IMG/VR virus record: IMGVR_UViG_3300028380_000482 | Location: 43,564 to 107,563 of that record | DNA: 64,000 bases | Direction: 5' to 3' (one strand) | Source: a virus | Lineage: Duplodnaviria > Caudoviricetes | In this document: piece by piece, positions 20,367 through 49,701 of the stretch | Position numbering within the stretch: the first letter of the stretch is position 1 | Layout of the letters: each line of letters starts with the position of its first letter | Program-made: the position numbers and the translations under genes | Notes under the pieces: model-generated | Seen by the model: the letters and a program-made list of their open reading frames with translations, nothing else | Databases searched by the model: none | What the model was told of the DNA's origin: nothing

Positions 20367-20408
20367 ATTCTATTTTCCTTCTGAAGAAGAACCTGTTACA
20401 CTGATTAG

Positions 20409-20470
20409 GCGGCTAGAGAAGGCCTCTCGAACACTCAGTACCTCGCTGAGTTGCCGCGCACACCACGAGG
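20409..20470 (+). ncRNA. UA/GAA three-way-junction leader motif, copy 1
   Basis: GCGGC-UA-GAGA(loop)UCUC-GAA-C-ACUCAG(UACCUCG)CUGAGU-U-GCCGC; the loop can pair with downstream CGAGG. Confidence 0.6.
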
Positions 20471-20490
20471 GCATCATGAGGAGATGCGCC

Positions 20491-21099
20491 ATGTCTATCT
20501 TTCTTAATTACGCTACCCACCAAGCCGAAAAATTGCGTGTATTGTACCCCTTTCAACTCACGCCGAACGGGTGGAAATGGGTTGCGGTCTGTGAATGTGG
20601 GACAGTAAAAATTGTTCTGGGAGCCCATTTGAAAGTGCTGAAGAGTTGCGGATGTTGGAAACGTCAATATTGGCAGGCCCGCATTACCACGCATGGCCAA
20701 GGAGGAAATGGGAAAGCCAGAAGCAAAGTCTATAAAACGTATTTGCAGGTTAAAGAGCGCTGCGAGAATCCGCGCACCCAGCACTATCCTCTCTACGGAG
20801 CACGCGGCATCCGCTGCGAATTTCAGTCGTTTGAAGAATTTTATGCAACTTTGGGAGATCATCCGGGCACTGGCTATAGTATTGATCGCTACCCGAATAG
20901 AAGTGGCAACTACGCTCCTGGTAATGTCCGTTGGGCGACACTGGCAGAGCAGAACAATAACAAACGTACAAACATCAACATCACCTACGACGGAAGAACG
21001 CAGACCCTTGCGCAGTGGGCGCATGAAAAACAGATGAGCGTCCCTCGTCTCCACTGGCAATACTACCAAGGGTGGTCTTACGAGCGAATGCTGAGTTAG
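20491..21099 (+). CDS. HNH-type homing endonuclease, antisense to the late arm
   Basis: CECG...SCGC, THG, KERCENP...YGARGI, SIDR...GNYAPGNVRWAT..QNNN. Confidence 0.88.
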   Translation: MSIFLNYATHQAEKLRVLYPFQLTPNGWKWVAVCECGTVKIVLGAHLKVLKSCGCWKRQYWQARITTHGQGGNGKARSKVYKTYLQVKERCENPRTQHYPLYGARGIRCEFQSFEEFYATLGDHPGTGYSIDRYPNRSGNYAPGNVRWATLAEQNNNKRTNINITYDGRTQTLAQWAHEKQMSVPRLHWQYYQGWSYERMLS

Positions 21100-21131
21100 C
21101 TGCGTCGCTGGCATGCTAGTTGCCTTCCTGG

Positions 21132-21506
21132 TTATTGATAGACAAATTCAAGAACATCGCCCCCGCCGGGCACGAACCCCGTGACAGTTACTGTGCTTCC
21201 TGCCACTGTGAAATTATCGTTCGTCTGCCGTAGTCCGTTCACATACATAGACACGGTATTCGCAGCCGGAGTCGTACTGAGGACAAAGACCGTCTGATTT
21301 CCACCGAGCGTGAACACATCTTCATGCCACGGAACCGAGGTGCCGCTTCCTGGTGCTCCGGCTGGTCCGACCGGCCCCTGCGGCCCTGGCGGTCCGACAA
21401 TCCCCTGTGAGAGCAGCTCTGTGACGACAATCTCATGGACGACGGTATCGCCGTTGCTGGTCGAAAGAGATTCAGTCGTGACTTGTTGAATAAGAACATC
21501 ACTCAC
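21132..21506 (-). CDS. collagen-like repeat fibre adaptor
   Basis: GPPGPQGPVGPAGAPG; C-terminal YVNGL domain resembles that of 19215..20366. Confidence 0.75.
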   Translation of the reverse strand: MSDVLIQQVTTESLSTSNGDTVVHEIVVTELLSQGIVGPPGPQGPVGPAGAPGSGTSVPWHEDVFTLGGNQTVFVLSTTPAANTVSMYVNGLRQTNDNFTVAGSTVTVTGFVPGGGDVLEFVYQ

Positions 21507-21889
21507 TATGGCCTCGTCACGATCAGGTGAATATCCACCAGTCCTTTGCCGTCCGTCAGCTTGACTACGTCCTGCCCAGTCGGGAAGCTATACTTAATAT
21601 CGAATACGGCATCACACACGGGCGCGAGTTCCGCCGTCTGTTCTTCGGTCAGACTCAGCTCCAACACGCCCGGATCTATCAACACCAACAATCCATCGGT
21701 TGCCGTTGGGCTGGTCGAAAACCGCAGCAGCACCGTCTCAGAGGCTAAGGTCGGGCGCACTTTAATTTCCGCCGTCGTACCAGCCGGAAACGGAACCAGC
21801 ACCCCCTCGCTTTTCCATGTGATCGTCTCCGCGTAGGACGCACCAATCAGGATCGAGAGCCGTAAAGCGGAGACAATCTGTTCGGTCAC
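21506..21889 (-). CDS. BppU-like fibre adaptor
   Basis: GASYAETITW...LSLTEEQTAEL...VFDI pattern. Confidence 0.6.
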   Translation of the reverse strand: MTEQIVSALRLSILIGASYAETITWKSEGVLVPFPAGTTAEIKVRPTLASETVLLRFSTSPTATDGLLVLIDPGVLELSLTEEQTAELAPVCDAVFDIKYSFPTGQDVVKLTDGKGLVDIHLIVTRP

Positions 21890-24321
21890 TCCTCCTCCCT
21901 GCTTCCCTCATCATTTTTCTTTGGGGGTGCGACCGGCGGAGACGTTGCACTCGGCACAAACCCAAACATCGAATCATCGAGCCCCTTCCCACGGCGCAAG
22001 TAACTGAGCCGCGTCGGCCAAGGAATCGTCGATACAATTGGCGTGGCCGCTCTGGCAGCCCCCTTCTCGCTACTAGAGGGTGTGAGCGCCTCATACACTT
22101 GCGGCTCGTTATTGGTTTTGTGAAGTCCCGAGCCTGACACACTGCCGCCAATCCCCACGACAATGTTGTCTGACTCGCCGGTAATTTGCAGAATCCCTGG
22201 CGGCGTATTGCCTGGGACTTCCGCCATCTTCCCCACCCCGAAGAGGCCGATATTCTGCGAGTCGTGAATCAGGAGCGTCGGGCTGCGGCCTTCGCGCTTC
22301 ATGCCGAAGATCCGCACATTCTTAGCGCCCGTGATTTCATTGCCCGCGTGTGGAATCACGCACATCTTGCCGAACTCAGTATTGAGCCCGTAGAAGCTGA
22401 GCGGCTCCGTCGTCCCGTTCACATAGACTTGGCGTGAGTCGTTGTTGCGATCGACCATCTTTTGCGCGACCACCTGGAGTCCGTAGTGCTTGCCACCGCC
22501 GCCGCCGTTAAACCACACGGCGTAGCGTTTCTGATTGACGGGCGCCCCTGAAGCAAAGCAGTTCGCAAGGAAGGGGGCATCCAACGAGAGCCCAAAGGTC
22601 AAGGACTTCCGCCCCGCCCGCCAGCGCAGGTAATACATCCAGTCGTTGGCGATCGGCGCATTACGGAGAAACAACGTAAAGTCAGTGGCCGTAGTCGTAG
22701 CGGTCGGATCGTTGTCAGTGAGGAGCATGGGGACAGGAGACGGCGGTTGCCAGGACTTGTGAGAGGCGATGATCGACTTATGGAGGCCCGGCCCCATCAG
22801 GACGGTGTTCTTCTTGAGCCGAATGAGGTTGCTCGTGTAGATGGTCCCACGCGGGAGCCACACGCGCCCATGTCCGGCTGCTGCTGCGGCAAGAATGGCA
22901 TCTTGCAATGGCTTGGTGCTATCCGGCCCAGTATTGCCGACTTCCGGGTCGGTGCCGAGATAGCCGGTCGTGGGGCCGCCGTGCTCTTTGAGTTGGACAA
23001 AGGGGCCATCTTCGAAACTGGGAAAGTGACCGGGGACGTGTCGCGAAAGCAGATCGCCGACCGGCGGCCCTGCGTTCGCCATGATGTCTTGAGCGACAAT
23101 CGGCGCACTGCGTAACACACCGTCCACCACACTCCGCGATTCGAGCTTGTCGGTATTCTTCACGTAGGTCGGGAAAACCGAGGCTTTATTGCTGGCGTCA
23201 GCTTGGGTTTGGTCGTTATAGGCAAACTCCGCGATCCGGCTCCACGTGCCTTCCCCACAGATGACCGGGCCTCCGCATGCCATTGTCGCCCCACCCTTAT
23301 TGCGAAAGAGCTTGGTCGTACCCGTGACGAAGACATTGTGTATGTACAGATCCCGCCCGTTGGGATTATCAATCGCAATCATGCCCTGGGCAGCGCCCCG
23401 CATCTCAATGGTTCCGTCATAGAGGACCATCCCCGTCTTCGCTTCAATGGCCGGGGCAGGCGTCGCGGCAGTGATCTTGAATCCGACAAGCACAATCGGC
23501 GACGCGTCGGTGCCTTCCGCCGCCGATATTTTTTGGTCAAGCAATTCGACGCCTGCGGCCATCGTCCCGTTGGGCGTGAACGGAATGCTGCTCCCGATGC
23601 GGATACCGTAATCGCCGCCGACACATTTTAGTTTCGCGGCGGGTCCGGTGCGCCCGGGCAGCCCGTAGAAGCACGCGAGACTGCCGGTGGCCTCAATCTG
23701 TACATCCCGCATGGCGGAATCTTGCGCGGCAGAGAACGCCAGCCCGATAGCACCCGCGTTCCCATTGGTGTTGATACGGATGCCCTCCAATATTTCTCCA
23801 AAATTGGATTTCCCGAAGTCGTTGAAGTTAGCCGGAAGGCCGAGTGGGTCGAGTGGTTCCGCATTGGCTTTGGCATTCTGGTTGGCGGCTTGAAATGCAC
23901 GCCACGCCATGACGGGGCGGGGACTACTCTTATTGGTAAACCCAGTCACGGCGGAGGTTTTGAGTTTCAATTCCGGCCAGCCCTGCGGACAATCCGACTC
24001 TCCCCGAAACACATGGTTATGCGGGTCCTGTGGCAGTGGCCCGCCCTTTTTCCAATTCACCCATTCATAGAGCTTGACCGTGTTCGTGACAGCGTAGGTC
24101 CCACATTCAAGATAGGTGGCGAGCTGGTTCTCGTGCGCGTCCTCGATACAGGTATTGAGCCCATTGGTTGAATCCCCGCTAAAGTCCTTATTAACGCCGG
24201 GATATTTGTTGCAGACCAACAGCCCAAGAAGAAAGCGAGAGTCTGTCTTGGCGGAGTCGGGAATGGATGCGTGCGCCTGAACAGAAAAAAGCAGTAAGAA
24301 AAGGCTGATAATTAACGCCAT
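21886..24321 (-). CDS. signal-peptide pectate-lyase-like (GH55-like) tandem beta-helix protein
   Basis: Signal peptide ...VQAHA; two modules GDST.GLN...YLECGTYAVTNT and DSTKPLQDAI...VWLPRGT. Confidence 0.75.
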   Translation of the reverse strand: MALIISLFLLLFSVQAHASIPDSAKTDSRFLLGLLVCNKYPGVNKDFSGDSTNGLNTCIEDAHENQLATYLECGTYAVTNTVKLYEWVNWKKGGPLPQDPHNHVFRGESDCPQGWPELKLKTSAVTGFTNKSSPRPVMAWRAFQAANQNAKANAEPLDPLGLPANFNDFGKSNFGEILEGIRINTNGNAGAIGLAFSAAQDSAMRDVQIEATGSLACFYGLPGRTGPAAKLKCVGGDYGIRIGSSIPFTPNGTMAAGVELLDQKISAAEGTDASPIVLVGFKITAATPAPAIEAKTGMVLYDGTIEMRGAAQGMIAIDNPNGRDLYIHNVFVTGTTKLFRNKGGATMACGGPVICGEGTWSRIAEFAYNDQTQADASNKASVFPTYVKNTDKLESRSVVDGVLRSAPIVAQDIMANAGPPVGDLLSRHVPGHFPSFEDGPFVQLKEHGGPTTGYLGTDPEVGNTGPDSTKPLQDAILAAAAAGHGRVWLPRGTIYTSNLIRLKKNTVLMGPGLHKSIIASHKSWQPPSPVPMLLTDNDPTATTTATDFTLFLRNAPIANDWMYYLRWRAGRKSLTFGLSLDAPFLANCFASGAPVNQKRYAVWFNGGGGGKHYGLQVVAQKMVDRNNDSRQVYVNGTTEPLSFYGLNTEFGKMCVIPHAGNEITGAKNVRIFGMKREGRSPTLLIHDSQNIGLFGVGKMAEVPGNTPPGILQITGESDNIVVGIGGSVSGSGLHKTNNEPQVYEALTPSSSEKGAARAATPIVSTIPWPTRLSYLRRGKGLDDSMFGFVPSATSPPVAPPKKNDEGSREEE

Positions 24322-26849
24322 GTGCCTCCGGTCACCATGCCGCTCACGCGATCACTGCGGGGATCGACGATGCGCGCCCGTGGCATATTCGCGGCATTTG
24401 GGTAAGTGTTGAGGGGATTGCCGCCCGCTTCACGGACATAGAAGTAGATATTCTGCCCTTGTGTGAGGGTATCTTTGAATTTGAGGGCGTAAATACATTC
24501 GGCCTCACTCCCCGCCCCCGCACTCCCGGACATAGTGACGAACGGAATACTGTTGAAACTTTGAATCACCCCGCAGTCGATATTGGCGGTCTCATCACTG
24601 GCTAATAACTCCACACCGGGGATGAGAGAGCCGATGCCCAGCGCGGGCGTATAACAGACGGGGGCAGTACAGTCGTCTGTGACGGGGACGGCAGCAGTTT
24701 GCACGGTGGGGTCGGCAGGATCGACTTGATAGTAGAGCGGGAAGGGAACCGTCACATGACTGTTGACGGTATTGCGAATCTTGACAATGAGCCGGGCCTG
24801 CCCACCCGCGCTCGGCACCAGTTGCGCGTTCAAGGTGTTATAGAGCGGCGCGGTTGCGGCCCCGCCGACATTGGACTGCCACTGATACCTCGTCGTGGCA
24901 AGGATCGGCGTCCCACCATTTCCGCCCCCGAGGTTATTGGTGGCAGTGATTGCAGGAGAGATGGAAAGCGCGGGAATCTTCGGTCCCCCGTTAATGGTTG
25001 GTGTCCCTGCCGTGACAAACCCCGTTGCCGCATTGTAGGCCACAGTCACGACTTGGGAACTTGTCGTAATCGTGTTGGTCGCAAAGGTAAAGTGAAAACA
25101 CCGCAGCCCGGTAATAGTCGCAGGGCCGGTCGGAGTTTTCTGTACGCCAGCAACAACAAACGTCCAGCCTGTGAGGCTGGTTCCTTCCATTGGGATTGTG
25201 CCTTGATCATCTGCGTTCCAACAGACATCAACCTGATCGGCAGCGAATACTTTGGCTTGCAGCACGGTCGGGGCACGATGGACGTAGAACACATAGCCGT
25301 CATCGTTCACGGCATTCGCTCCAATCGTGACGACATTGCCACTTTGGCTGACGTAACCAGTGACACAGGTCGCCGTCGGGGTGCCATTATCTTGCACTTC
25401 CAAGAAATAGAAGGTCGTGCATTTGGCATCGACAATCTTCTCCGTACTGAGCAGGTTGAAGGTGAGGCCGGTGCCGCTATGCTTGGTAAAGAAGAGTTTG
25501 TGATTCTGTTCGTAGTCTTTGTGCCGACTCCACGCCATCTGCTGTGAGATAAAACTATTGGTGCTGGTATAGATATCCGTGCCTTCGGTCCACGTTCGCC
25601 CAGTGGCACCCCGTAAATTATCCCACGAGGGAATGGCCCGCAGCAAATAGATAGAGGTCAAGGCAAAGGTCGGATTGAGAGGCCCAATGAACCAGCCCCC
25701 CCACGCACTGATGCCCGTCGCGCCCCCAGAGGCCGCCGCCCGCCCTTCGATCAGTGCAGCTCCAGGGTAGCTCCGCTGGTGAAAGGTCGGTGCCGGTGAG
25801 GTGTTGGTGGGCGAGAGCCCAGTTTGCACCGCAGCGACGGGAACAGGGGCGTAGGTGGTCGTGTCCTGTGTTCCGCAGCCGTTCGGCCACGGGTCGTCGA
25901 GGTAGCCAAGGCAGTCGCAGCCGTCACAAGCCCCGTTGCCACCTTTTCCACCACTGGACTCATTAAAGAGTAATTGAAAATTGAGGTCGGGGTCTCCGTA
26001 GACAGGGAAATTGTCCATCGTATACGGATTGCCACTCATTCCCCCAAACGTGAGCCCGCCCGCGACAACGGCAGCGGCCATTTGGGTCCGCAAGTCCTTG
26101 GTGAATTTTTTCCGCCCGACTTCAAAACTGGCATTCGGGCTGGTCGCATTGGGGCAGTTCACTACAATCGGTTGCCCAGTAATAAACCGCGTTTCGTCAA
26201 GATATAATCCTGAATAGATTTTTTTGCCGCCGAGGTTGTCTTCGTGTAATTTTTTCACTCGCAGTTCTTGGTTAATATTCATTTGTATCCCGGCATCGTT
26301 GCGAAAATTGGGAACAAAAATGACTGCGTTCTTATTTTCCGCATGATAGAGCTGATATTTGAACGTGCCGGGATGGGCTTCGTCGTAGAGGTCGTTATAG
26401 GCCGAGGTCATCCCCCAAGCGGTCATACAGAGGGCCGTCTGCATGTCATCTAACACCTGCGAGGCCAGCGGAGAATTGAGCGGGAGGAAGCCCGCGCCGA
26501 TAGCAATCTTCGTGGGCGAGGAAAATCCACTACTATCACACGAGACCCCTGATCCCGGTTCGATACACGGATTATTGAGCCGCACCCATTTGGCGGCGCG
26601 GGCGTTGTTGGAGTTATATTGGACTTTGAGTCCTGCATCGACCGCCGCCGAGGCTTTGGCGGTGGCGTAGGGTTCACCGATGATCCACTCATAGCCAAAT
26701 TGTTTAGCAATGTTGGTAAACTTCGCCCAATCACTATTGATCTTGCCATCATCGAGGACCGCAAACTGATTACGGAAGTCACCGGGAACAGCCGCAGCTC
26801 GGCTAGACAGGCTTAAAACCACAAAAAGTGAGAAGAGAAAGGCGTACAT
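24312..26849 (-). CDS. signal-peptide multidomain protein (possible glycoside-hydrolase-like barrel plus beta-sandwiches)
   Basis: Signal peptide ...SRAAA; YSGLYLDE; many paired Cys. Confidence 0.65.
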   Translation of the reverse strand: MYAFLFSLFVVLSLSSRAAAVPGDFRNQFAVLDDGKINSDWAKFTNIAKQFGYEWIIGEPYATAKASAAVDAGLKVQYNSNNARAAKWVRLNNPCIEPGSGVSCDSSGFSSPTKIAIGAGFLPLNSPLASQVLDDMQTALCMTAWGMTSAYNDLYDEAHPGTFKYQLYHAENKNAVIFVPNFRNDAGIQMNINQELRVKKLHEDNLGGKKIYSGLYLDETRFITGQPIVVNCPNATSPNASFEVGRKKFTKDLRTQMAAAVVAGGLTFGGMSGNPYTMDNFPVYGDPDLNFQLLFNESSGGKGGNGACDGCDCLGYLDDPWPNGCGTQDTTTYAPVPVAAVQTGLSPTNTSPAPTFHQRSYPGAALIEGRAAASGGATGISAWGGWFIGPLNPTFALTSIYLLRAIPSWDNLRGATGRTWTEGTDIYTSTNSFISQQMAWSRHKDYEQNHKLFFTKHSGTGLTFNLLSTEKIVDAKCTTFYFLEVQDNGTPTATCVTGYVSQSGNVVTIGANAVNDDGYVFYVHRAPTVLQAKVFAADQVDVCWNADDQGTIPMEGTSLTGWTFVVAGVQKTPTGPATITGLRCFHFTFATNTITTSSQVVTVAYNAATGFVTAGTPTINGGPKIPALSISPAITATNNLGGGNGGTPILATTRYQWQSNVGGAATAPLYNTLNAQLVPSAGGQARLIVKIRNTVNSHVTVPFPLYYQVDPADPTVQTAAVPVTDDCTAPVCYTPALGIGSLIPGVELLASDETANIDCGVIQSFNSIPFVTMSGSAGAGSEAECIYALKFKDTLTQGQNIYFYVREAGGNPLNTYPNAANMPRARIVDPRSDRVSGMVTGGTWR

Positions 26850-30506: not shown

Positions 30507-30541
30507 GTGGAAGTATCCCGTTGCGTGTGAAAATCATGGTC

Positions 30542-30913: not shown

Positions 30914-30974
30914 GATGAGGGGTCCCCCAGGGATCGGTGTAAGAAGGTGAATGCTCTAGCCTTAGTGTACTACG

Positions 30975-36600: not shown

Positions 36601-36609
36601 AAGTAGTTC

Positions 36610-40300: not shown

Positions 40301-43300
40301 GGTCATCGAAGATGGCGCCGAGTTTCTGCCCTCCTTCGGCAATGCCGCTGGCGAAGTCGGTAAAGAAGTCACGAATAGTGCCAGTGCTGACGAGCGCCCG
40401 TTCGGCCTGTTGTTTCTGCAAATCGAGAATGGTCTGCTGGGCTTTGATCCCTTCCACAGCAGCAGCGCTCTGCGCGCCAGCGAGGGTCGTTTGCGCGCCG
40501 GTTAAGGCAGCAACGGCATTTTGTTCTTCGAGGAGAAGTGTGTTGAGCTGTCCTTGCAACTCAATCGTTTCCCCCGTCGCGGCAATCTGATCTCGTATCT
40601 GCGCTTGTCGGGCTTGGACGGTAGAGAGCTGTTGTTGCGCGAGTCTGACGGCGTTCTCTGCGGCCCGGATGTCGGCTTGCGCCCGCTCTTTGGCGAGGGC
40701 AATGAGCCGATTCTGCGCGGCGCTCAGGGTCTCGAACGAGGCCCCTTGGGCTTTCAGTAAGTTCAGTTGTTCTTCTTCGAGCGCGATGCGATTATCGAGT
40801 CCGGTTTGCGCTTGTTGTTGTTGGGCTTGTTCGACAGCGGCGGTCGCTGCCCGGACCGCTTCAATCTGTTGCGTTTGTTTGAGTTGGGTCTGAAAGTTCT
40901 CTTGCTGTTGTTTCAGAACTTCCTGTTCGCCATTGATTCGGGCGATCACACTCTTACTTTGTTCACTGGTAATCTCAGCCCCTAATGCCTGCACTTTTGC
41001 CTGTGATTGCGCCAGTTCAGTATTCTGTTGGGTGATCCCCTGCGTAATTTTCGCAAGATTCGCGGCCTGGGTCAGAGCTTCGCCTTGATTCCCCTGGGCA
41101 ATCGGACGACGACGTTCTTCTTCCGCCACCCGCTGAAGCAGAGAAATGGAGTTTCGCAAAATCTCTTGTCGTGCCCGTTCGGCGCTAATTTGCGCTTGTA
41201 CCGACCCCACGCGGGCCTGCCCGACCGTCTGTTCTTGTTGCGCGGCCTGTTGCGTGAGCGTAGCCCGTTTGTCTTCGACATTGGCCAACCCCGCAAGGGC
41301 TTGGATTTGCGTATTGGTCAATGCCAGTGCGGCTTCAGCAGACGAGAGCCGCCGCCGTGCTTCCGCCTCAGCCGCTTGGGCACGGGTTTCGGCTTGAGCT
41401 TGCGAGGCTTGAGTGATTCGTTGCTCAGCACTGAGCTTGATTTCGACAATCTTGCCCGTAATGGCCGTTTGCTGATTCAAAAACTTCTCTTCAATCGCCG
41501 CGCGTTGATCGACGTTCGTGACCGTCGCGAGTTCCGTCCGTCGCGCCGCCTCGATGCGGGAGAGGGCGGCATCCTGAAAAGCAGACGCATTCCCAGTTGC
41601 AGCGGCGCCTTCTTCGATCAGTGCCGCACTCGATTGCGCTGCTGCGAGCTGCGCCGCCCGGATGGCTTTGGCTAACTCTGGACTAATCTCAACAGTCTTC
41701 TGCGCTTCGACGTTATACTGAGCGGCGGCCTGCGCGAGCCCGAGCATCGCACCCGCCGCAAGACTGAGATTCGACGGGAGGTTTTTCGCCGCGCTCGCAG
41801 TGTCAGTCAGTGACCGCGCCACCGAGGCAAACTGTCCGCTTGCCCGTTCCGCAGCAGTCGCCCCGACACCAAACTGCGAGGTAAATTCTTGCGTGGCGTC
41901 GGCACTGTCTTTGAGTGCGCGGGTCAGATTCTGACGGAGGACGAGGGCAGACTTTGCGAATGTGTCTGCCGTTTTATCTGCCCCGACCAAGTTCGCCGCG
42001 AGTTCGGCAACGTCAGTCGCTCCGGCGGCAGCTCCTGTGGCCAGCGTTTGCACACCAGTTTCAACGATCTTGAGTTCCGTCCCCACACTAGAGAGCACGT
42101 CTCGGAAGAAACTGTAGACTTTAATCGCATCCTGAGCCGCCGCAGCAGCTTGTGAGGTTTGCTGGGTCGCCGCACCAGCGCCACTGCCTGCCCCAATTTC
42201 CACTCCGGCCTGAGTTTGCGGGAGCTTAATCTGCGGAAGAATTTCTTTCGTGTTATTGAGTTGCCGGTTGACTTCGAGGAGAAATTCCAACACTCCCTGG
42301 AGCGCATCTTTGAGCAGGTCAAACGGCGCCTGAAAAGCCCGGCCTAAGAGTTGACCGCTAATATCGGCGATCGATGAGGTCAGTCCGTTAAAACTGTTTT
42401 GGACCGCAGTGCCTGCCAGTGCAAATGCGGAGAGCCGCTCATTGATAAACTCAAACAGGCGCCCTTGTTCACGCGCGGCAACGACCTCGCGTTGGCGGAT
42501 TTGCAGGGCGTTGGCCAATCGAGCATTCTGGTCAATCTGCCCATCGGCAATAGCACGGACTTCCTGGCTCACTTGGCGCAGCGGAATCCCGATCGCGGTA
42601 GCTGCCTGGACAATGAGGGTCGTTGCCTGTTGCGCTTCTTTGAGGGACAGACCAGCCGCCGTCAGTGGCCCTTTCGCTTGTTGAAACGCATCCACGAGCT
42701 GCTCTGTGGTGGCGACCGTTTCGAGGGCGTCTTTTTGAATATCCTTGATAATCCCCGACGCAACTTGCTGCGCAGCGGCAAACTTCTCTGCGCCTTCGAC
42801 CGTCCGCCCCTGACTATCGACAATCTTATCTTGCGCGGCGACTAGCGAGGCGAGCCCAATCCGTTGCTGCTCAAGGGTGGCGTTATAGCGAATACCCTCT
42901 TGCGCGATAGCTTTCACGCCATTCAGGAGTCCGGTGACCGCCGTTGCCGCCGTGATGCCGGTAAACACCCCAAAGGCTTGTTGCAGGATGGGACCAAGGC
43001 CACTCGCCGCGACCCCGGTTTGTTGGGTCGCGTTGCGAACTTCCTGCAACGATTGGGCGTTCTTGGCGAATTCCTGCCGTGCAGTCGAGAGTTGTTGGGC
43101 GAGCTGGCGATTACCGGTTGCAGCAAACAACGCGGCTTCGCCGACGCGCCGTTCCGCCTCGGCTAACGAAATCGCCCCTTGCTTGGCTTGCTCTTGAATA
43201 GCGATCTGTTGACGGAGAAGACTCAATTCTCCGAATCCGCCCGTAGCACCTTGCGCTTGCGCGGATCGGAGGCGGCGTAAGGTCTCGGCAATCTTCTCAA

Positions 43301-43409
43301 CGTCGGAGACCGTCCGCTCCGCAGCGTCCCCCATCGCATCGGTCGCACGAACGAACTCATTGGCTCCTTGGGTTGCGCCGCTGGCATCGATGGAGACATT
43401 CAAGGCCAT
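37392..43409 (-). CDS. tail tape measure protein (2005 aa)
   Basis: Ala/Gln-rich coiled coils, Gly-rich hydrophobic segment; follows the chaperones. Confidence 0.92.
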   Translation of the reverse strand: MALNVSIDASGATQGANEFVRATDAMGDAAERTVSDVEKIAETLRRLRSAQAQGATGGFGELSLLRQQIAIQEQAKQGAISLAEAERRVGEAALFAATGNRQLAQQLSTARQEFAKNAQSLQEVRNATQQTGVAASGLGPILQQAFGVFTGITAATAVTGLLNGVKAIAQEGIRYNATLEQQRIGLASLVAAQDKIVDSQGRTVEGAEKFAAAQQVASGIIKDIQKDALETVATTEQLVDAFQQAKGPLTAAGLSLKEAQQATTLIVQAATAIGIPLRQVSQEVRAIADGQIDQNARLANALQIRQREVVAAREQGRLFEFINERLSAFALAGTAVQNSFNGLTSSIADISGQLLGRAFQAPFDLLKDALQGVLEFLLEVNRQLNNTKEILPQIKLPQTQAGVEIGAGSGAGAATQQTSQAAAAAQDAIKVYSFFRDVLSSVGTELKIVETGVQTLATGAAAGATDVAELAANLVGADKTADTFAKSALVLRQNLTRALKDSADATQEFTSQFGVGATAAERASGQFASVARSLTDTASAAKNLPSNLSLAAGAMLGLAQAAAQYNVEAQKTVEISPELAKAIRAAQLAAAQSSAALIEEGAAATGNASAFQDAALSRIEAARRTELATVTNVDQRAAIEEKFLNQQTAITGKIVEIKLSAEQRITQASQAQAETRAQAAEAEARRRLSSAEAALALTNTQIQALAGLANVEDKRATLTQQAAQQEQTVGQARVGSVQAQISAERARQEILRNSISLLQRVAEEERRRPIAQGNQGEALTQAANLAKITQGITQQNTELAQSQAKVQALGAEITSEQSKSVIARINGEQEVLKQQQENFQTQLKQTQQIEAVRAATAAVEQAQQQQAQTGLDNRIALEEEQLNLLKAQGASFETLSAAQNRLIALAKERAQADIRAAENAVRLAQQQLSTVQARQAQIRDQIAATGETIELQGQLNTLLLEEQNAVAALTGAQTTLAGAQSAAAVEGIKAQQTILDLQKQQAERALVSTGTIRDFFTDFASGIAEGGQKLGAIFDDLGQSISTRFFSQLLVGKEEGFDKPIIENVSDLFGGNGILSSLIGQGGQGLFSNLFGGAGGGGGTEGLVFTQGQNFGEVFGTGFQGGFTQISDEVFAAGSAPLASSQASAATAGTSFGEIFGAAAGGAAGIGLGKGLAGALGLGGSKQAGLGGTIGGTVGAIGGGIIGSFFGPGGTALGAAIGGGVGSLFGSIIGGLFKSTPSKGTEIRKGVKDLLKDIQVTFASEIDSGEYFFEETKKLAQKMFGGSDGQDFLKASKIVLEDKIGPELSKQLQALGAALTADQAKKLGKSIEQTGTTFGNLLLDNLGVDPEKIGGAIQETVQKAGLSFAELATKLNSLFEDNLIGIEFYQDAIQGTVDIFNQDLPAAINVAAITLRSFNEAGIFDVEKFQRDLQEVTDIFDVITSSFVDVVKAAKPGEDVGKLLAEQIRDGFVDLAIDRFLKDFIENQLFEGIDLSNGIDEGEATKLKERAEAAAGAVGEIRDAFGQVADAAADATEKATDLFDTIRDISQQRIDLRFNVIGDLQSIGAISPVEAARGRIAGQQGVLSGLGASTRTTFTDAELAQGREAVRSLRQATVELFQAQEQEAQNALQNRIRDINAEFDAKRQSLQKEAEAARAASEQRINALQNEKDQVQELFQARIDALQEELQLAQEFRRVAEDLNQTITGLVQSSSNLSKPEQLGFLQQQASGIRGRIAGATPEQLPDLLQQLSRNLTQQLDVGKGFLDPTAFNNLFNSVVGELEKARAQATEAGSRVEAIQQQIADTTVQSAAALLSIDARIEQERAEAAAAQLAFQAQADALSQQEQAAVQAATAATTIEINKLRIEAADEIRNLAVIEDQILADQRDRALREAELTQEQIDVLGRLDLSINTLTGVIGNFLTDIISTGPSTTGGPSGQKFVLGSTGGNGTTAGQTNAIAVNVSVPVQVGGAVSQNTNVTENAIIQMVVSDLKKGGKISAALKQGGKG

Positions 43410-43858
43410 CAGCTAATGACCCCCCTCGGCTCAGGCTTCGCCAATTCCGATGGCTGCTCTTTCAGTTCTTTTTCTTCATCCTGGCGCTTGTGAACGAGCG
43501 AGACAAATTCAATATCGAGCCCCCGTACACAGTGCAGCAGCCAATCCCGATGGGCAAAGTTATGCATCCCGAGATGATTGCGGAGATAGCCAATGATCGC
43601 CGACGTCGGAATCGCGCCGATGCTGAACCCCGTCTGCCGGTCAGCTTGCAGCATCCAGAACGTGTCCCACGGCAACTGGAGGTGGGGCGGGAGCCGGGGT
43701 TGGTCGATCAGCGGTTGCACGTCATGCGGCATCGTCTCTCCGGTCGGGTCATCCTCTAGCGCTTCCAGAATGTAGCCTTGGAAATCTTCGATGATGGGAC
43801 GGTCGGTGTCCTTATGCTGTACCTTCCAGTGATAGTGCCATTGGAGGTACTCGGTTAG
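43409..43858 (-). CDS. tail assembly chaperone, -1 frameshift extension (G-T-like)
   Basis: Frame is open from the slippery site into PPHLQLPWDTFWML...RQTGFSIGAIP. Confidence 0.78.
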   Translation of the reverse strand, partial: LTEYLQWHYHWKVQHKDTDRPIIEDFQGYILEALEDDPTGETMPHDVQPLIDQPRLPPHLQLPWDTFWMLQADRQTGFSIGAIPTSAIIGYLRNHLGMHNFAHRDWLLHCVRGLDIEFVSLVHKRQDEEKELKEQPSELAKPEPRGVIS

Positions 43859-44280
43859 TTTTTTAAGTCCGCCCTCAGTTGGGCTTTGCCAAACCGCGAC
43901 TTGTCACGGGCAATACGAAAGATGGCATCCCGGAGCCGGTCGTAATTCGCCAGAATCCGCAGTGCCTCACTTTCCGAATACGGCACATCCACCCCGTTCT
44001 CTTGCAGCCCGCACCAGTCTTTGACGAGGTGTTTCGCCCCCGCCGTGTTCTCGATCGAGCGGGCAACTTTGGTCGGAAACTGTCCGCCGTTGGCGTCCGA
44101 GAGGTGCATCTTCTCCCGCATGATGTGGGTCAGAAAATCTATGTACTTGGGGGAATCGGCAGAGGCGATTTGAAACCACGTGCCGGTGCGATGGCCGTTG
44201 TTCTCGGCATCTGCGGACATCGGCACCCACACGCCTTCTTCTTCGGCGAGTTGGTCACTGAGAAATTCGTTCAGATCCAT
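43855..44280 (-). CDS. tail assembly chaperone
   Basis: EEEGVWV...LVKDWCGL...VPYS; CAGGAGG RBS. Confidence 0.82.
   Translation of the reverse strand: MDLNEFLSDQLAEEEGVWVPMSADAENNGHRTGTWFQIASADSPKYIDFLTHIMREKMHLSDANGGQFPTKVARSIENTAGAKHLVKDWCGLQENGVDVPYSESEALRILANYDRLRDAIFRIARDKSRFGKAQLRADLKN
43858..43864 (-). other. programmed -1 frameshift site A AAA AAC
   Basis: GAC TTA AAA AAC TAA at the chaperone end; the -1 frame joins ORF 43409..43732. Confidence 0.78.
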
Positions 44281-44338
44281 GCGGGGGGTCCTCCTGATTA
44301 GCGTGCTCCTGTTCACGAAACCGTCATGAGTGAATAAA

Positions 44339-44405
44339 GTGGGCTGACGGACGACACAGGAGGTGAGACATCGCCGGTTCGGGTCGCGCACCCTAGCCAG
44401 CCCAC
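44339..44405 (-). ncRNA. UA/GAA three-way-junction leader motif, copy 2
   Basis: GUGGGCUGGC-UA-GGGU(loop)ACCC-GAA-stem(CACCUCCUG)-GUCAGCCCAC; the loop is complementary to the RBS CAGGAGG. Confidence 0.6.
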
Positions 44406-44411
44406 AGCGCC

Positions 44412-45614
44412 TTACGCGTGAATTAAATCGACCTGAAACATGCTGGCCGTGAGGTTATCGCGTACAGCGGTCCACGTGAGGTTTTGCAACACTGGCTGGT
44501 TCTGCCCTTGCTTCCGTAACTGCCCGGTCAAATACATCGCCGGAGCGGTAAAGATCATGTAGTTGGGCGGCGTCGAGCCATCCTTAAACGGCAGTACCAG
44601 CGACGTGAGCGTGTGATTGAGCACCTTGCTCAGCATGGTCACGTCTTCAAAATACGCTTCGAACGGGCCGGTACAGGAGAACGTACCATCAATCAGCGCC
44701 GCTGCGGCTGCGTTGGCGATCGCTTCCGCTTCCGTCACGTTACCGTTGACCGTGACGCCGATTTGCCGCAACCGGGTCAAGAGCGGCGTGTTCCCTTCGT
44801 ACACAATCGGCACGTTACTCGTCGCGTTCAGCACGGGGGCGGTATCCGCCGCGACGATGGAGCCTGAGCCTTTCATCGAGGACGTTTGCGTGGTGACGTT
44901 ATTGCCCAAGAACCGTGTCGTCCCGGTGAGCTTTTGCCGAGCTTGGGCGGTCATGGCAAATTCCACCGGGCGGAACCCGACGCCGCGCTGGTAAGTGGTG
45001 GTCAAATCGGAGAAATTCTCTTCGACGGAGAAGGACGTTTGCGTGGCGATCCCCGTCCGGGCCATCTTGCCTTTGAGCGTCACTGAGGGGCCAGCAGTCT
45101 GGGTCACAATCGTGGCGGCGCCACTCGCTTTGAAGAACAAACCAAAGACAATCTTTCCAGCGACCACGCTGTCTACTTGCCCGGCTCCGTCATTGAGCCC
45201 GCCGGTCGTGCCGCTCACTCGTAGCCACTGCTTCACGACAACGCCAGTTGCCAGAAGTCCGTTGGCGGAATCGTTCACTGAATTATCCACACTGGAAAAG
45301 GCGAGGGTCGTGCCGGTGAGGGTAACTGTCACCACCGCGCCGCAGAGGGTCGCGATGATAAAGTCGTCGAACGCCCCGCCTGCCGAGACTTCGTAGTTAA
45401 TGGCGAAGTTAGCGGAGTAGCCGACCGGAATTTGATCGGTGACTAACCGAGACGCGTCGATTTCTTCCGACTGCACATTCTGTTCGGTCCGCACGAGACC
45501 GTCGCCGCCAGCGGTGAGACGGACGGTTTTAATGTTGGGGTTGGTCGGGGTGACCCCGTAGGTAGATTCTTGAATGTAGTAGGTGCCGACGCGACTACTG
45601 CTCGCTAAAGGCAT
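44412..45614 (-). CDS. tail tube (major tail) protein
   Basis: ESTYGVTP..., SEEI...R, SFSVE pattern; position before the chaperones. Confidence 0.85.
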   Translation of the reverse strand: MPLASSSRVGTYYIQESTYGVTPTNPNIKTVRLTAGGDGLVRTEQNVQSEEIDASRLVTDQIPVGYSANFAINYEVSAGGAFDDFIIATLCGAVVTVTLTGTTLAFSSVDNSVNDSANGLLATGVVVKQWLRVSGTTGGLNDGAGQVDSVVAGKIVFGLFFKASGAATIVTQTAGPSVTLKGKMARTGIATQTSFSVEENFSDLTTTYQRGVGFRPVEFAMTAQARQKLTGTTRFLGNNVTTQTSSMKGSGSIVAADTAPVLNATSNVPIVYEGNTPLLTRLRQIGVTVNGNVTEAEAIANAAAAALIDGTFSCTGPFEAYFEDVTMLSKVLNHTLTSLVLPFKDGSTPPNYMIFTAPAMYLTGQLRKQGQNQPVLQNLTWTAVRDNLTASMFQVDLIHA

Positions 45615-45642
45615 AGGATTTTCTCCTCAAGTTATTCAGGGT

Positions 45643-45825
45643 TTAAGTGTCGGCATCTTTCGGTGGAACAAGGTAATACTTGCCGTCGTGATGTCTCCAG
45701 ACCGTGCGATGGGCGCCGGTTCCCATGTGACGAACAAACGAAGATCCATCATTCCATTCCTCGATAATTTCCCAGTACGGCCCGGTGAGCGTAGAATCTT
45801 CGATTGCCACATGATCACCTACCAT
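45643..45825 (-). CDS. hypothetical protein
   Basis: Fills the gap in the operon; start trimmed. Confidence 0.45.
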   Translation of the reverse strand: MVGDHVAIEDSTLTGPYWEIIEEWNDGSSFVRHMGTGAHRTVWRHHDGKYYLVPPKDADT

Positions 45826-45829
45826 CGCG

Positions 45830-46330
45830 CTACTCGACGAGTCTCCGCTGTGTCGCCTTTTCGTTATCGACCCACGAGATGACATCGATCTTTGGCTCCC
45901 CTTGCTCGATGTCGTAGCGGGTGAATCCGTCTTCGGTGACCACGAGCCACACCCCGGTCCCTTGGTTCATCGACTCTTCCCGTTCGACATAGATCATGCT
46001 CTTGGGCACGTTGACGGCGGAGACAATCCAATCGTTGGCGTCCCACTCGATTTTGTCTCCTTGCCGGACGGGTTCAGTACGGCGAGGCTCGCCGATGGGT
46101 TGCGGTTCGGAACCTTCTTCCTCAGATTCTTCGTCCTCCTCATCCTCCTCCTCCGGTTCATCTTCTTCAGGCTCAGGGTCGGTGGGTTGCCGTCCAGCAG
46201 CTTTTGCTTGTTGGCGGCGCATTTTTTCGCGTTGCGCTTCCTCTAATTCTTCGGGTGTCAAATCAATTACGGACGGGCGCGGGTTTCTGACCCCTATCGG
46301 GGGTGTTGGTGTTTTTGGCGTATCGACCAT
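45830..46330 (-). CDS. acidic hypothetical protein
   Basis: AAGGAGG RBS; poly-E/D tract. Confidence 0.6.
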   Translation of the reverse strand: MVDTPKTPTPPIGVRNPRPSVIDLTPEELEEAQREKMRRQQAKAAGRQPTDPEPEEDEPEEEDEEDEESEEEGSEPQPIGEPRRTEPVRQGDKIEWDANDWIVSAVNVPKSMIYVEREESMNQGTGVWLVVTEDGFTRYDIEQGEPKIDVISWVDNEKATQRRLVE

Positions 46331-46334
46331 CGGG

Positions 46335-46769
46335 CTAGCCTCCTTGGGCGTATTCGTCGCGCTGGTATTCAATCGTGACGTTGACCTGGTAGCGGTCGTT
46401 GCTCTGTCCGACCTCGATAATGTTTCCCGCCACACACGCAAGCCGTTCGGTAGGGGAGATGGCAAAGGTTTTCACTCCTTTCCCAAACAACGCGAGCCAC
46501 TGATCGGCCAGGGTCAGGATCGGCCCTCGGCCTCCGTTCCCAATCCCGAACACTTGCCCGGTAATGAAGCCGGGAAAGCGGTAGAGTTGGGTCTCCTGTA
46601 CGTTGCCTGTGGTGATCGGCCCGCCCAGCGTATTCTCAAGCATGGTGAGGGCGACATGCGGAGCATTCGGTGGTTCAGCAAATGCAGTCCCCGGAAACTT
46701 GACGGGTGTTGCCGTCCAGTTGGCGAGGACAAAGGTTTCAATCGTGACCACCGCCTGGGGATAACTCAC
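46335..46769 (-). CDS. tail terminator-like protein
   Basis: Position; ITGQVFG..G.G, YQVNVTIEY. Confidence 0.65.
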   Translation of the reverse strand: MSYPQAVVTIETFVLANWTATPVKFPGTAFAEPPNAPHVALTMLENTLGGPITTGNVQETQLYRFPGFITGQVFGIGNGGRGPILTLADQWLALFGKGVKTFAISPTERLACVAGNIIEVGQSNDRYQVNVTIEYQRDEYAQGG

Positions 46770-47167
46770 AGCCCCTCCTCCGCTGCGACCTGCGCAAAGA
46801 TCGTTTCGGCTTGGGCTTCCGTGGCCTGCACGGCTTGGGCAAGCAGGAGTTTAGGAGCAACGTAGCGCGTCCCGTACTCGATAAACTGGGCGTAGTTGGC
46901 ACCGTTGGCGACATAGACGGGTGCGTAAGGATCATCGGGGAACACATTCGCAACCCCGGTAACGGTCCCAGTGGGAATATCGGTGGCCGGTTCCGGGGCA
47001 ATATGCCATTGTGCACGCGAGAATCCCGTATCGACGGGCCAGGGTTCCACCACGGCACCAAGGACGTTCACCGCCAGGGCATTGCGCGCCACACCAGACA
47101 CGCGCCGGACTTTGACGGTGTAGTTGGCAATCTCGGCTTTGAATGCAGGGAGGTTCGTGACTGGCAT
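46766..47167 (-). CDS. HK97 gp10-like neck/tail completion protein
   Basis: PVDTGFSRAQW; NYAQFIEYGT. Confidence 0.85.
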   Translation of the reverse strand: MPVTNLPAFKAEIANYTVKVRRVSGVARNALAVNVLGAVVEPWPVDTGFSRAQWHIAPEPATDIPTGTVTGVANVFPDDPYAPVYVANGANYAQFIEYGTRYVAPKLLLAQAVQATEAQAETIFAQVAAEEGL

Positions 47168-47173
47168 ACGTTC

Positions 47174-47545
47174 CTACGGACGGGCGTGCATAATCCAGGC
47201 AACACGGTTACCGATGGGATGGGCGGTCTGGACGGTGTACCGCGCCCCATTGGTGACAATCGTGTCGTCCGGTTTGGGTTGATAATTGCCGGGCACATCG
47301 GCCCCGAGGACAAAAAAGTTGTGATCGCTCGCCAGCACATTCACGTTATCGATGCGGCTCTTCCGCACGCGGTACATGATGGCGCGGATCGCACCGTAGC
47401 GGATCGGCTCACTGAGCCCCGTCGCCGGGTCATACACGCCACTCGCCGACGGAATAATATCGACGGAGACCACCGGCCCTTGTGGTCCGCTGAAGGTGCC
47501 GACATCGAAGCGCGCCAGAGAGTCCCACAATAGATTGTAGTTCAT
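47174..47545 (-). CDS. head closure/stopper-like protein
   Basis: YDPATG, PKPDDTI; position in the neck module. Confidence 0.6.
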   Translation of the reverse strand: MNYNLLWDSLARFDVGTFSGPQGPVVSVDIIPSASGVYDPATGLSEPIRYGAIRAIMYRVRKSRIDNVNVLASDHNFFVLGADVPGNYQPKPDDTIVTNGARYTVQTAHPIGNRVAWIMHARP

Positions 47546-47991
47546 CGGTTTGTGTCCTCTTGGCCTGTGACCTCGGTCGAATCAAATTGGCCTTGCGGGA
47601 GGAGGGCCGGGACCCGGTCAGGATCTTGGTTGCGGGTATCAACATCGGCTTGGGAAATGCCGCCCGCGAATGGGGCAATAGCAAGACTGCTCACCGCCCA
47701 CTCGCCGCCGCCTCGTTCAATGTAGAGCGTGGCGAGCTTGCTATAGTGATCGAACAACTGACCCGCACTCACACTAATGTCACCGCCGATACTGTGATCG
47801 ACGACTTGGGCATACCTGGCAGCCAGGGATTGCGCGGCCAGTCCGGTCGAGAGGGTCACGCTTGCCCCTGACGCCAGGAGTGCGCCAATCTCCTCATCCG
47901 TGAGGAGCCACGTTTGCGGTCCCACATCCCCTAAGTTGAAGCGGACCTTGTCTTTGTCGGTTGCGAGGGTTGGATTGTAGCCGCAGGCCAT
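47542..47991 (-). CDS. head-tail adaptor
   Basis: DKVRFNLGD...LLTDEEI. Confidence 0.75.
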   Translation of the reverse strand: MACGYNPTLATDKDKVRFNLGDVGPQTWLLTDEEIGALLASGASVTLSTGLAAQSLAARYAQVVDHSIGGDISVSAGQLFDHYSKLATLYIERGGGEWAVSSLAIAPFAGGISQADVDTRNQDPDRVPALLPQGQFDSTEVTGQEDTNR

Positions 47992-48000
47992 GATCCGCTC

Positions 48001-48309
48001 CTAGCGCAAGACCAGATATTTCCAGGCGCCCGAAGCGAGATCGAGCAACCCGCCGGATTCATTCTGGACGCGAATCGAAATCACGTTGGCAGCTTTGACA
48101 TAGCCAGTGACCACGACGCCCGCCAAATTATACGGCGCCGAGACGAGGACGAAGTCTCCAAAAGCCGCCCCCGTAGCGGGAATATCTGCTGAGGTTTCAC
48201 CGACTCCATCGGCGAGACTGGATGGGTCATAGGTCGCGGTGCCTTTGGCGATCACCGCCAAGCTGCCGTTGCCGAGTTGGGCACGTCCGCGTGTATAGAG
48301 ACTACTCAC
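48001..48309 (-). CDS. small virion protein
   Basis: SLADG...GAAFGDFVLVS domain seen in fibre C-termini; GAAGGAGG RBS. Confidence 0.6.
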   Translation of the reverse strand: MSSLYTRGRAQLGNGSLAVIAKGTATYDPSSLADGVGETSADIPATGAAFGDFVLVSAPYNLAGVVVTGYVKAANVISIRVQNESGGLLDLASGAWKYLVLR

Positions 48310-48331
48310 GAGTCACCTCCTTCAGGTGATA

Positions 48332-48610
48332 TTATTTTCTCCGGTCCTGCTGACGGACCTCTTGCGGGTGCGCCGCCCGGACGGGCGTCTTGCCTTCCGT
48401 CCGTTTGACCTCCGTATCCGCTCGAATGGCGTCAGCCTCAGGCCGGTCGATCACCGGCAGCAAGTAGCCTTGCCGATGGAGGGCGGCGATATTGTTCACC
48501 GGATATTCACTTGCAGTGAGTATCGTGCCAATAGGCAACAACGCTCCCTCAGCAGCGGGAATCGCTTTGGCGACGAGATAGAAGGTAAAGCCGGGCGCGC
48601 GCATAGACAT
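48332..48610 (-). CDS. hypothetical protein after the capsid gene
   Basis: GGGAGA RBS; position. Confidence 0.55.
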   Translation of the reverse strand: MSMRAPGFTFYLVAKAIPAAEGALLPIGTILTASEYPVNNIAALHRQGYLLPVIDRPEADAIRADTEVKRTEGKTPVRAAHPQEVRQQDRRK

Positions 48611-48621
48611 CTCCCTGAGGG

Positions 48622-49581
48622 CTAGGCAACAGCATTCTCAAAAAAGTAGCCGACATCCGGCGCGACGACTTTGTTGTCCCACGCCATTTCGATTTCCAGC
48701 CGGTCACTCTTGATTTCGGGAATGTAGAAGCGCGTCACGCCGACATTGAGTCCTAATCCTTGCGAGACGCCTTGCCACATGAAGGTATAACCGCCGCTTG
48801 GGGTATCGAGCGCGGGCGTCGGTGAGGCATACACCACCAGGGCGTGCTTGCCTTGGATGAAGTCATAGTTCGGGGACCCGCCTTCCACGTTCGTGGCTTT
48901 GACGGCACCGGAGACCAACACCCGATCAATGCCGAGGATGTTCGCCATCATCTCTTCCGGCAGAATGCGCGTAGTCGTGGTGCTAATACGGTCGATAAAC
49001 TGCGGATGATCTTGGAGGATATTCCACACGTCCCACCCGAGCACGAGGCGATTGGGTTTCATCCCGGAAATCACCATCACTTGCCGGATTGCCGCGCGAA
49101 TATTGGCAATCGGATCACTGCTGGTGTAGTCCGACCATTTGATAAAGTCGGTCGTGCCCGTCTTCGTCGTCCCCCACACACCTGCTTTGAAGTAGTCGTT
49201 GGCAAACTGCACTTCTTGTTTGATGAGGCCCATTTGGGTGAGCCAAGTCGTTGCATTGCGGTCCGGGTCATTGGGCGGCATCGACGCGGCACGGGTCTGA
49301 TGGTCGATGTCCTTATGCAAAGCAAACACATCGACGGAATAGCCGTCCGTGGATTCCCGGTAGCCCGAGCCGGCAGACTCCGTCCCTGGCGGGCGAACCT
49401 GCATCTGGTCGCGCATGAAGTCATTTTTGTCGAAGATAAAGTATTTGCCGGTGGGCCGATCCACCGGCACGACTGGAAAGACTTGGGTCGCAATGAACCC
49501 GGTCTGCATCTGCATGTAGGCCACGGAGATGTTGGTCTGGATTTCGTCGATATACACTTGCCCGATATGTGGTTGCGGCAT
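48622..49581 (-). CDS. major capsid protein (lambda E-like HK97 fold)
   Basis: TNISVAY...FIATQVFPVVPV; KWSDY..SDPI; KPNRLVLG. Confidence 0.9.
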   Translation of the reverse strand: MPQPHIGQVYIDEIQTNISVAYMQMQTGFIATQVFPVVPVDRPTGKYFIFDKNDFMRDQMQVRPPGTESAGSGYRESTDGYSVDVFALHKDIDHQTRAASMPPNDPDRNATTWLTQMGLIKQEVQFANDYFKAGVWGTTKTGTTDFIKWSDYTSSDPIANIRAAIRQVMVISGMKPNRLVLGWDVWNILQDHPQFIDRISTTTTRILPEEMMANILGIDRVLVSGAVKATNVEGGSPNYDFIQGKHALVVYASPTPALDTPSGGYTFMWQGVSQGLGLNVGVTRFYIPEIKSDRLEIEMAWDNKVVAPDVGYFFENAVA

Positions 49582-49627
49582 GATGTAGGTTCCTCAAGAA
49601 GATGTCGCACCCACCGGCAGTGCATAG

Positions 49628-49701
49628 CCGAGAAGAAAATTCGCGGGCCGACGCGGGCTCGGTGCTCCCCGCGTATTCGGTAGCGAGCCTAGACCCGCGA
49701 A
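49628..49701 (-). ncRNA. UA/GAA three-way-junction leader motif, copy 3
   Basis: UUCGCGGGUC-UA-GG(loop)CC-GAA-U-ACGCGGG(GAGCACCGAG)CCCGCGU-C-GGCCCGCGAA; loop CCGAG can pair with downstream CUCGG. Confidence 0.6.

Follow-up and report, generated by a model that had tools for sequence, protein, structure and literature searches.

A recurrent structured leader, probably a divergent relative of the int-alpA RNA, ahead of capsid, tail chaperone and HNH endonuclease genes in a siphovirus genome

The window analysed here, the final 64 kb (64,000 nucleotides, nt) of a 107.5-kb IMG/VR virus record (IMGVR_UViG_3300028380_000482), belongs to a genome of the siphovirus type and contains three short intergenic elements, named here el1 (20409..20457, plus strand), el2 (44339..44405, minus strand) and el3 (49640..49701, minus strand). 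A first-pass annotation had described them as divergent copies of one three-way-junction RNA, lying ahead of an HNH endonuclease gene, a tail assembly chaperone gene and the major capsid gene, respectively; upon re-reading of the letters the positions were found to be accurate, and the identities of the three genes hold. The locus thus raises the question of what a single RNA might do in front of such unrelated genes, and of whether it has relatives among the known RNA families. Our answer, which we hold with moderate confidence, is that the elements represent one structured leader, present in four copies in this genome and related to the int-alpA RNA motif (Rfam RF02996), which probably exerts control in cis over the gene behind it.

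The fold shared by the three elements reads P1-UA-P2-GAA-P3-P1', with P1 closed by a C-G pair. In el1, P1 is formed by positions 20409-13 and 20453-57, followed inward by UA (20414-15), P2 (20416-28; GAGA/UCUC with a 5-nt loop), GAA (20429-31) and P3 (20434-50), whose loop is UACCUCG. The P2 of el2 is GGGU/ACCC, also with a 5-nt loop, and its P3 loop is UGUCUCACCUCCUGUG; the P2 of el3 comprises merely 2 base pairs (bp) with a 7-nt loop, and its P3 loop is GAGCACCGAG. The three-way junction is the minimum-energy fold of both el1 and el2; el3 taken alone has a different minimum-energy fold, its junction being backed by orthologues and by RNAalifold. Folded one sequence at a time, the elements give weak z-scores (-1.5 to -1.8). 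In the 107.5-kb genome, a strict descriptor (P1 of at least 5 bp, UA, a G..C hairpin, GAA and a hairpin of at least 5 bp) matched at el1, el2 and el3 and at one weak coding locus, the yield of a dinucleotide shuffle being 0.72 loci, whereas the bare letters CTAG-N7-14-CGAA are not enriched in the genome (8 found versus 11 expected). The signal therefore lies in the structure plus the junction and not in the letters of the junction by themselves.

Orthologues from related phages were found for el3 (L011:5888-5949 and L038:827-888) and for el2 (L031:2131-2189), all of them with compensatory changes. When aligned with MAFFT, the L011 copy, from a 90%-identical relative, displayed compensatory changes of which one falls in P1 and the other three in P3, the CUAG, the CCGAA and the loop being unchanged. 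In the L031 copy, from a phage whose tube protein is 69% identical, compensation was seen at three pairs of P1 and at a single pair of P2, and the P3 hairpin was entirely different. At the capsid position, compensatory changes in P1 and P3, together with co-varying loop targets, could be followed down to 56% capsid identity. A further phage, L041, carries two copies (L041:12978-13036 and L041:~7893-7945, both plus strand), one with a weak P1 ahead of its capsid gene and a near-ideal one ahead of its tail tube gene, the latter encoding a different tube family (PF16460). A covariance model, R1, built from only the L041 tube copy, the L031 copy and el1, recovered el2 at 40.8 bits (el2 was not in its training set), the L011 copy at 27 bits, the L038 copy at 19.9 bits and el3 at 19.9 bits (E 0.008, filters off); el1, being part of the training set, scored 56.7 bits. 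With a second model, R2, built from 8 sequences, el1 scored 52 bits and the three elements came out of a whole-genome search at 52-54 bits. In the structural alignment of the 8 sequences, 97.1% of the cells are paired and 18 of the 19 pairs have changed on both sides, none of 500 shuffles being as good and slid-register controls reaching 23-45%; RNAalifold predicted the same three helices. The earlier claim that the stems diverge in sequence and still pair is thus borne out by the orthologues, the alignment and the shuffles alike.

All four copies in the genome are sense to the next gene, including those ahead of two genes that are inverted with respect to their neighbours, which upholds what had been proposed for the first three. 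The helices include six G-U/U-G cells, and the reverse strand scores much lower (17 versus 76 bits). Taken together, orientation, G-U cells and reverse-strand scores speak for an RNA read from the sense strand. We rejected a DNA-level reading, with the elements as inverted repeats bound by a protein or as a promoter in hairpin form, since the stems vary yet pair, contain G-U pairs and are strand-specific to the downstream gene.

The second property of the leader is the pairing of its P3 loop with the tail that follows P1'. The loop/downstream pairs proposed beforehand (CCUCG/CGAGG, CCUCCUG/CAGGAGG and CCGAG/CUCGG) are all present, and the complementarity exceeds chance: summed over the 8 elements, the longest P3-loop complement amounts to 50 nt versus 28.2+-5.5 for shuffled loops (0 of 2000 as high), and complementary sites of at least 5 nt number 18 versus 3.6+-2.1 expected. 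The mean complement is 6.25 nt between a loop and its own tail and 3.8 nt between a loop and the tails of other elements. From element to element the sites follow the loops, whose letters vary (CCUCG, CCUCCUG, UUCCUGC, CCGAG, CUCUCC). At a 5-nt exact cutoff, at least two complementary sites occur in 7 of the 8 elements, the second site of el1 requiring a G-U pair. In the usual layout one site is linear and the other is presented by the loop of an additional small hairpin, P4, located after P1' (GGCAU/AUGCC in the L041 tube copy and CGCAU/AUGCG in the L031 copy).

This layout relates to the ribosome site of the next gene differently from copy to copy. In el1, which lies in a divergent gap ahead of the HNH gene (20491..21099, plus strand, inverted with respect to its neighbours; phrog_374, 1.7e-39; AUG at 20491), the linear site 1 (CGAGG, 20466..20470, plus strand) is followed by P4 (GCAUC/GAUGC, 20471..20487, plus strand), whose loop AUGAGGA holds both site 2 (UGAGG, counting G-U) and the Shine-Dalgarno sequence of the HNH gene. 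In el2 the hairpin site comes first: the loop of P4 (CGUG/CACG, 44302..44317, minus strand) holds site 1 (ACAGGAG, 44306-44312), and the linear site 2 (CAGGAGG, 44290..44296, minus strand) is the Shine-Dalgarno sequence of the tail assembly chaperone gene itself (43855-44280, minus strand; phrog_313; AUG at 44280). In el3, site 1 (CUCGG, 49628..49632, minus strand) is kept in the L011 (UCUCGGU) and L038 (GCUCGG) orthologues, and the loop of P4 (GCAC/GUGC, 49606..49624, minus strand) holds site 2 (CGGUG, 49612-49616); both targets lie 31-51 nt upstream of the start codon of the major capsid gene (48622-49581, minus strand; AUG at 49581), away from its Shine-Dalgarno sequence. The spacer of about 125 nt that carries the element is kept ahead of the capsid gene at 62% (L038) and 56% (L041) capsid identity, and neither spacer nor element was found in capsid relatives at 42-51% identity (L002-L009). 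In L038 (~915-945), site 2 is a UCGGAGG in the P4 loop with an AUG 6 nt later, opening a short frame that overlaps the capsid start out of frame; this frame, which may represent an upstream open reading frame or a case of translational coupling, is not conserved in the window. A CUCGGA-type target motif also recurs in the next intergenic gap of L041 (L041:13518-13571).

The fourth copy lies outside the window (G000:C1:9145-9202 = L051:1501-1558, minus strand) and was found by R2 at 20.7 bits (E 0.014). Right behind it stands a second HNH gene (L051:771-1463, minus strand, again inverted with respect to its neighbours; phrog_374, 3e-79), so that the leader of the structural genes is shared not with one mobile endonuclease, as had been claimed, but in fact with two. 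The two HNH proteins are 43% identical, and their leaders can be aligned end to end. The P3 loop of the fourth copy, UCCUUG, is complementary to CAAGGA in its own tail, and the Shine-Dalgarno sequence again falls within a hairpin loop, where, as in el1, it serves as site 2 inside P4. Overall, one of the sites is the Shine-Dalgarno sequence in both HNH copies and in the chaperone copy, i.e., in three of the four copies of the genome. Common to the two HNH leaders is also a TGnTAnACT motif located 6 nt ahead of P1, TGTTACACT in el1 (20394..20402, plus strand) and TGATAGACT in the fourth copy (L051:~1567-1575, minus strand). It resembles an extended -10 box and, if used, would let the transcript start at P1; judged from its letters, TGTTACACT is a possible promoter of the HNH cassette. 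A scan with the sigma-70 consensus called no promoter at the -10-like boxes or at the elements. No close relatives of the HNH genes were found in IMG/VR, and ahead of 80 distant homologous HNH loci in that database no such leader was detected (R2 with default filters, plus the descriptor). Since these 80 loci are devoid of it, the leader appears to be a trait of this phage lineage that has been redeployed ahead of different genes.

To which family, then, could such a leader be assigned? The first-pass annotation could assign it to no named RNA family, and in one respect the Rfam comparison agrees, there being no match in the window at the gathering threshold nor, around the three elements, at E<=10. 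The architecture and the junction letters are nevertheless those of int-alpA, and R1 cross-detects bona fide members of that family, so the idea of an unnamed RNA is not supported. The int-alpA RNA motif comes out of the 2017 survey by Weinberg et al., whose main text does not discuss it (PMC5737381); in Rfam it bears the type label 'Gene; sRNA' and a gathering score of 35.8 bits. The family consensus could be read from one IMG/VR contig (L024/L047), found with a sequence pattern derived from the el3 core: among the 14 matches of this pattern in IMG/VR, it alone is an int-alpA-type element, scoring 28.9 bits to RF02996, the others being chance. As seen in its alignment, the RF02996 consensus opens with an 8-bp P1 whose closing pair is C-G; UA then leads into a G..C hairpin of 4 bp with 5 nt in its loop, and GAAAA into a P3 of 5 bp, the pyrimidine-rich loop of which includes CCU. 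Two nucleotides separate P3 from P1', and a U-rich tail and AGG come last. R1 gives this RF02996-positive phage copy 22.8 bits. Two other segments of the same phage (L047:1857-1907 and G010:C1:15554-15602, both minus strand) are weak matches to the models built here, at 16-17 bits, and may be additional leaders.

A pattern taken from the RF02996 consensus retrieved 54 sites in bacterial genomes, mostly of Betaproteobacteria, and 17 of 17 loci tested scored 42.6-74.6 bits to RF02996, above gathering. Conversely, 8 of the 10 best R1 matches in 391 kb are bona fide int-alpA RNAs, with 64-75 bits to RF02996. No int-alpA reference was found in P22 or in the E. coli O157 Sakai chromosome, and a DNA search of a phage collection with the capsid region returned no match. 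The bona fide RNAs share the two-site arrangement, which forms no part of the Rfam model: exactly two downstream loop complements are present in 36 of the 54 pattern-selected sites, UGAAGG/GAAGG in the tail answering to the loop CCUUCA, and in the copies that we read the second site lies in a small hairpin loop just ahead of the start codon.

Compared with int-alpA, the present elements agree in (i) the C-UA-G junction, found in all four copies of the genome and in all orthologues except L038 (AUAG), (ii) the 4-bp P2 with a 5-nt loop, found in el1 and el2, el3 departing from it, (iii) the GAA, found in el1, el2 and el3, L038 having GAC, (iv) the 1-2 nt between P3 and P1', and (v) the P3-loop complement in the tail after P1', with two sites. 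The copies are divided over a second site in a hairpin loop at the Shine-Dalgarno sequence: el1 and the fourth copy have it, the P4 layout of el1 matching the tails of bona fide int-alpA RNAs, the hairpin of el3 presents a site other than the Shine-Dalgarno sequence, and el2 shows the opposite order, with the hairpin site first and a linear Shine-Dalgarno site. In contrast, the P3 stem and loop letters of int-alpA (GCGGG/CCCGC, CCUUCA) are not kept, and loops here reach 16 nt; the hosts are uncultured siphophages instead of Betaproteobacterial islands; the genes behind are those for HNH endonucleases, the major capsid protein and the tail chaperone; and the capsid copy has neither site at the ribosome site. 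We conclude that the elements are probably sequence-divergent relatives of int-alpA which, falling below the Rfam threshold, are not formal members.

As to what the leader does, the arrangement of its sites makes cis control of translation initiation, through competition between the two, the most likely role. The P3 loop would pair with one site at a time, the two pairings being mutually exclusive: pairing at the Shine-Dalgarno sequence would block the ribosome (off), and pairing at the decoy site would free it (on). The outcome, in both HNH copies and in the chaperone copy, would be a built-in brake or a two-state switch on initiation, and candidate triggers would be the co-transcriptional order of the sites, upstream ribosomes terminating 6-8 nt before P1, or a protein. 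That the pairings exclude each other, and that three of the four copies have the ribosome site as one of their two targets, is the reason why we regard the rate of initiation as the property most likely set by the leader. The leader may also tune the stoichiometry of structural proteins, as the first-pass annotation suggested, although only the chaperone and HNH copies can reach their Shine-Dalgarno sequences. The capsid copy would more likely act as a stable 5' or intercistronic structure (in stability, processing or insulation), or be an exapted remnant.

In T-even phages, T4 among them, RNA structures that sequester the ribosome-binding site (RBS) are an established means of limiting translation of homing endonucleases (I-TevI, I-TevII, I-TevIII, segB, mobE) and of some late genes (T4 soc, e, 25, 26) (PMC2988022). 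The likeness lies in a structured leader right before a free-standing HNH gene, able to occlude its Shine-Dalgarno sequence, and in the occurrence of such leaders before late, polycistronic structural genes as well. However, in the T-even cases the RBS is buried in the stem of a simple hairpin, a block that is lifted when transcription starts at an internal late promoter, whereas here a remote loop would pair with the RBS (as a pseudoknot or kissing interaction), a decoy would compete with it, and there is no sequence relationship.

Several points weigh against this account, and they concern the evidence, the kinship and the mechanism in turn. The structural alignment was fitted to its model, so its pair counts are somewhat inflated; the independent MAFFT comparisons of orthologues give the same compensatory changes from few sequences; and the whole sample is small, with 8 sequences from about five phage lineages. 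RF02996 scores none of the copies: it finds nothing around el1, el2 and el3 at E<=10, its best match over the whole genome is an unrelated 8.8 bits, and even the L041 tube copy, the most canonical relative, gives no match, for which reason homology with int-alpA, as opposed to convergence, is something we infer. Finally, in the capsid-position copies (el3 and its orthologues) neither site is the ribosome site, and a brake ahead of the most abundant virion protein makes little sense.

It is because of this capsid copy, with its targets away from the ribosome site, that a role in stability or processing stays a live alternative, to which we give a minor share of our confidence. The leader would then be a boundary or stability element, in which the compact junction and the pseudoknot mark the 5' end of the downstream message, primary or processed, or guard it from 5'-end-dependent decay, or else guard the 3' end of the upstream message, and so set relative messenger RNA levels and not translation. 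Consistent with this, el2 starts 6 nt past the stop codon of the tail tube gene (44412-45614, minus strand; PF18906) and el3 8 nt past that of the scaffold-like protein gene (49710-50105, minus strand), the capsid copy leaves the ribosome site untouched, and both HNH copies follow a -10-like box by 6 nt, which would put P1 at the very 5' end of the transcript. Such a role leaves unexplained the presence of two sites, as well as the targeting of the Shine-Dalgarno sequence in three of the four copies and in the bona fide int-alpA tails that were read. A more speculative and rather improbable combination of the two ideas is a portable, self-contained expression module that phages could set before any gene. 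Its junction and pseudoknot would shield the 5' end from decay, and a shift of its loop from the decoy, which is transcribed first, to the site that follows would serve as a co-transcriptional timer; if true, it would explain why the same fold stands before selfish nucleases, morons, integrases and a capsid gene.

Alternatively, only the HNH copies might be functional, the capsid and chaperone leaders being harmless remnants of homing-endonuclease or moron cassettes. Half of the copies do head HNH genes, with proteins 43% identical and similar promoter-leader regions, the spacer is missing altogether from capsid relatives at about 50% identity, and the capsid copy shows no link to the ribosome site. 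Against these observations, the capsid-position copy persists over a range of relatives, from one at 90% DNA identity to one at 56% identity in the capsid protein, and it does so with compensatory changes and co-varying loop targets, which argues for selection on its fold. The 80 leaderless HNH loci in IMG/VR indicate, moreover, that the leader is not tied to this HNH family; we find remnants improbable. Still more doubtful is a partial intrinsic terminator or attenuator, in which the GC-rich P1 and a U-rich tract would stop part of the transcription between late genes. A UUUUCUUCU follows el3, a UCUUUCUUUCU follows its L011 orthologue, and a U-rich run follows P1' in the Rfam consensus of int-alpA; yet U tracts fit el3 and L011 only, being absent from el1, the fourth copy, L031 and the L041 tube copy, a terminator scan called none of the elements, and it is hard to rationalise a terminator placed just before the capsid gene or at the start of the HNH message. 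Least probable is a trans-acting small RNA, or else a site at which a protein of the phage or of its host binds, suggested by the Rfam type label and by a P2 loop, NCGCG, kept in the tube/chaperone-position copies of three phages, for each copy has its own matching targets a few nt downstream, co-varying with its own loop, on which account action in cis is favoured.

Other RNA families were considered for the leader. Self-cleaving ribozymes (hammerhead, twister, pistol, hatchet and twister-sister) find no support, with no Rfam match at E<=10 and a P1-P2 junction of merely UA; the conserved hammerhead core (CUGANGA and GAAA) is absent. ARAGORN found no transfer RNA or transfer-messenger RNA in the window, and the resemblance to transfer RNA is limited to an acceptor-UA-D-arm-like start; tRNA-like and 5S-like resemblances were dropped, the defining cores being absent. 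Exoribonuclease-resistant RNAs of the flavivirus type stall 5'-3' exonucleases by means of a ring fold: their 5' end passes through a three-way junction, and a loop-to-tail pseudoknot closes the ring. The likeness to the present elements is one of topology alone (a three-way junction with P3-loop-to-tail pairing), no sequence similarity being seen. Riboswitches of the preQ1 and SAM-II types mask the Shine-Dalgarno sequence with a loop-to-tail pseudoknot that covers the ribosome site. The leader shares with them a loop-to-tail pseudoknot that would do so, but differs in having no evident conserved ligand pocket, few junction letters, freely varying loops and unrelated genes behind it.

The leader thus adds no new kind to the known RNAs, but a variant, below the Rfam threshold, of an orphan motif already on record. 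What is new are the gene contexts (capsid, tail chaperone/tube and HNH) and a fuller description of the unit, with decoy and P4. The int-alpA motif is catalogued without an assigned function, and what is probably a divergent branch of it, one that escapes the Rfam model, stands before late structural genes and homing-endonuclease genes in one clade of siphophages from soil. The full unit exceeds that model, comprising the junction, a decoy site and a hairpin presenting a second site that is often the ribosome site, and it offers for an orphan motif a hypothesis that can be tested by mutation. Our results suggest that the int-alpA family is much broader than its Rfam seed, and therefore that many 'orphan' phage leaders may belong to it.

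Two further features of the late region deserve mention. A plus-strand open reading frame at 17371-18237, within the minus-strand late operon, shows a weak match to LAGLIDADG_1 (E 0.0097, under the Pfam cut-off), and no int-alpA-type leader was found ahead of it. At the junction between the two tail-chaperone genes of siphophages, a frameshift overlap of the G/GT type is usual; here, the two genes (43855-44280 and 43409-43732) are separated by a gap of 122 nt (43733-43854, minus strand).

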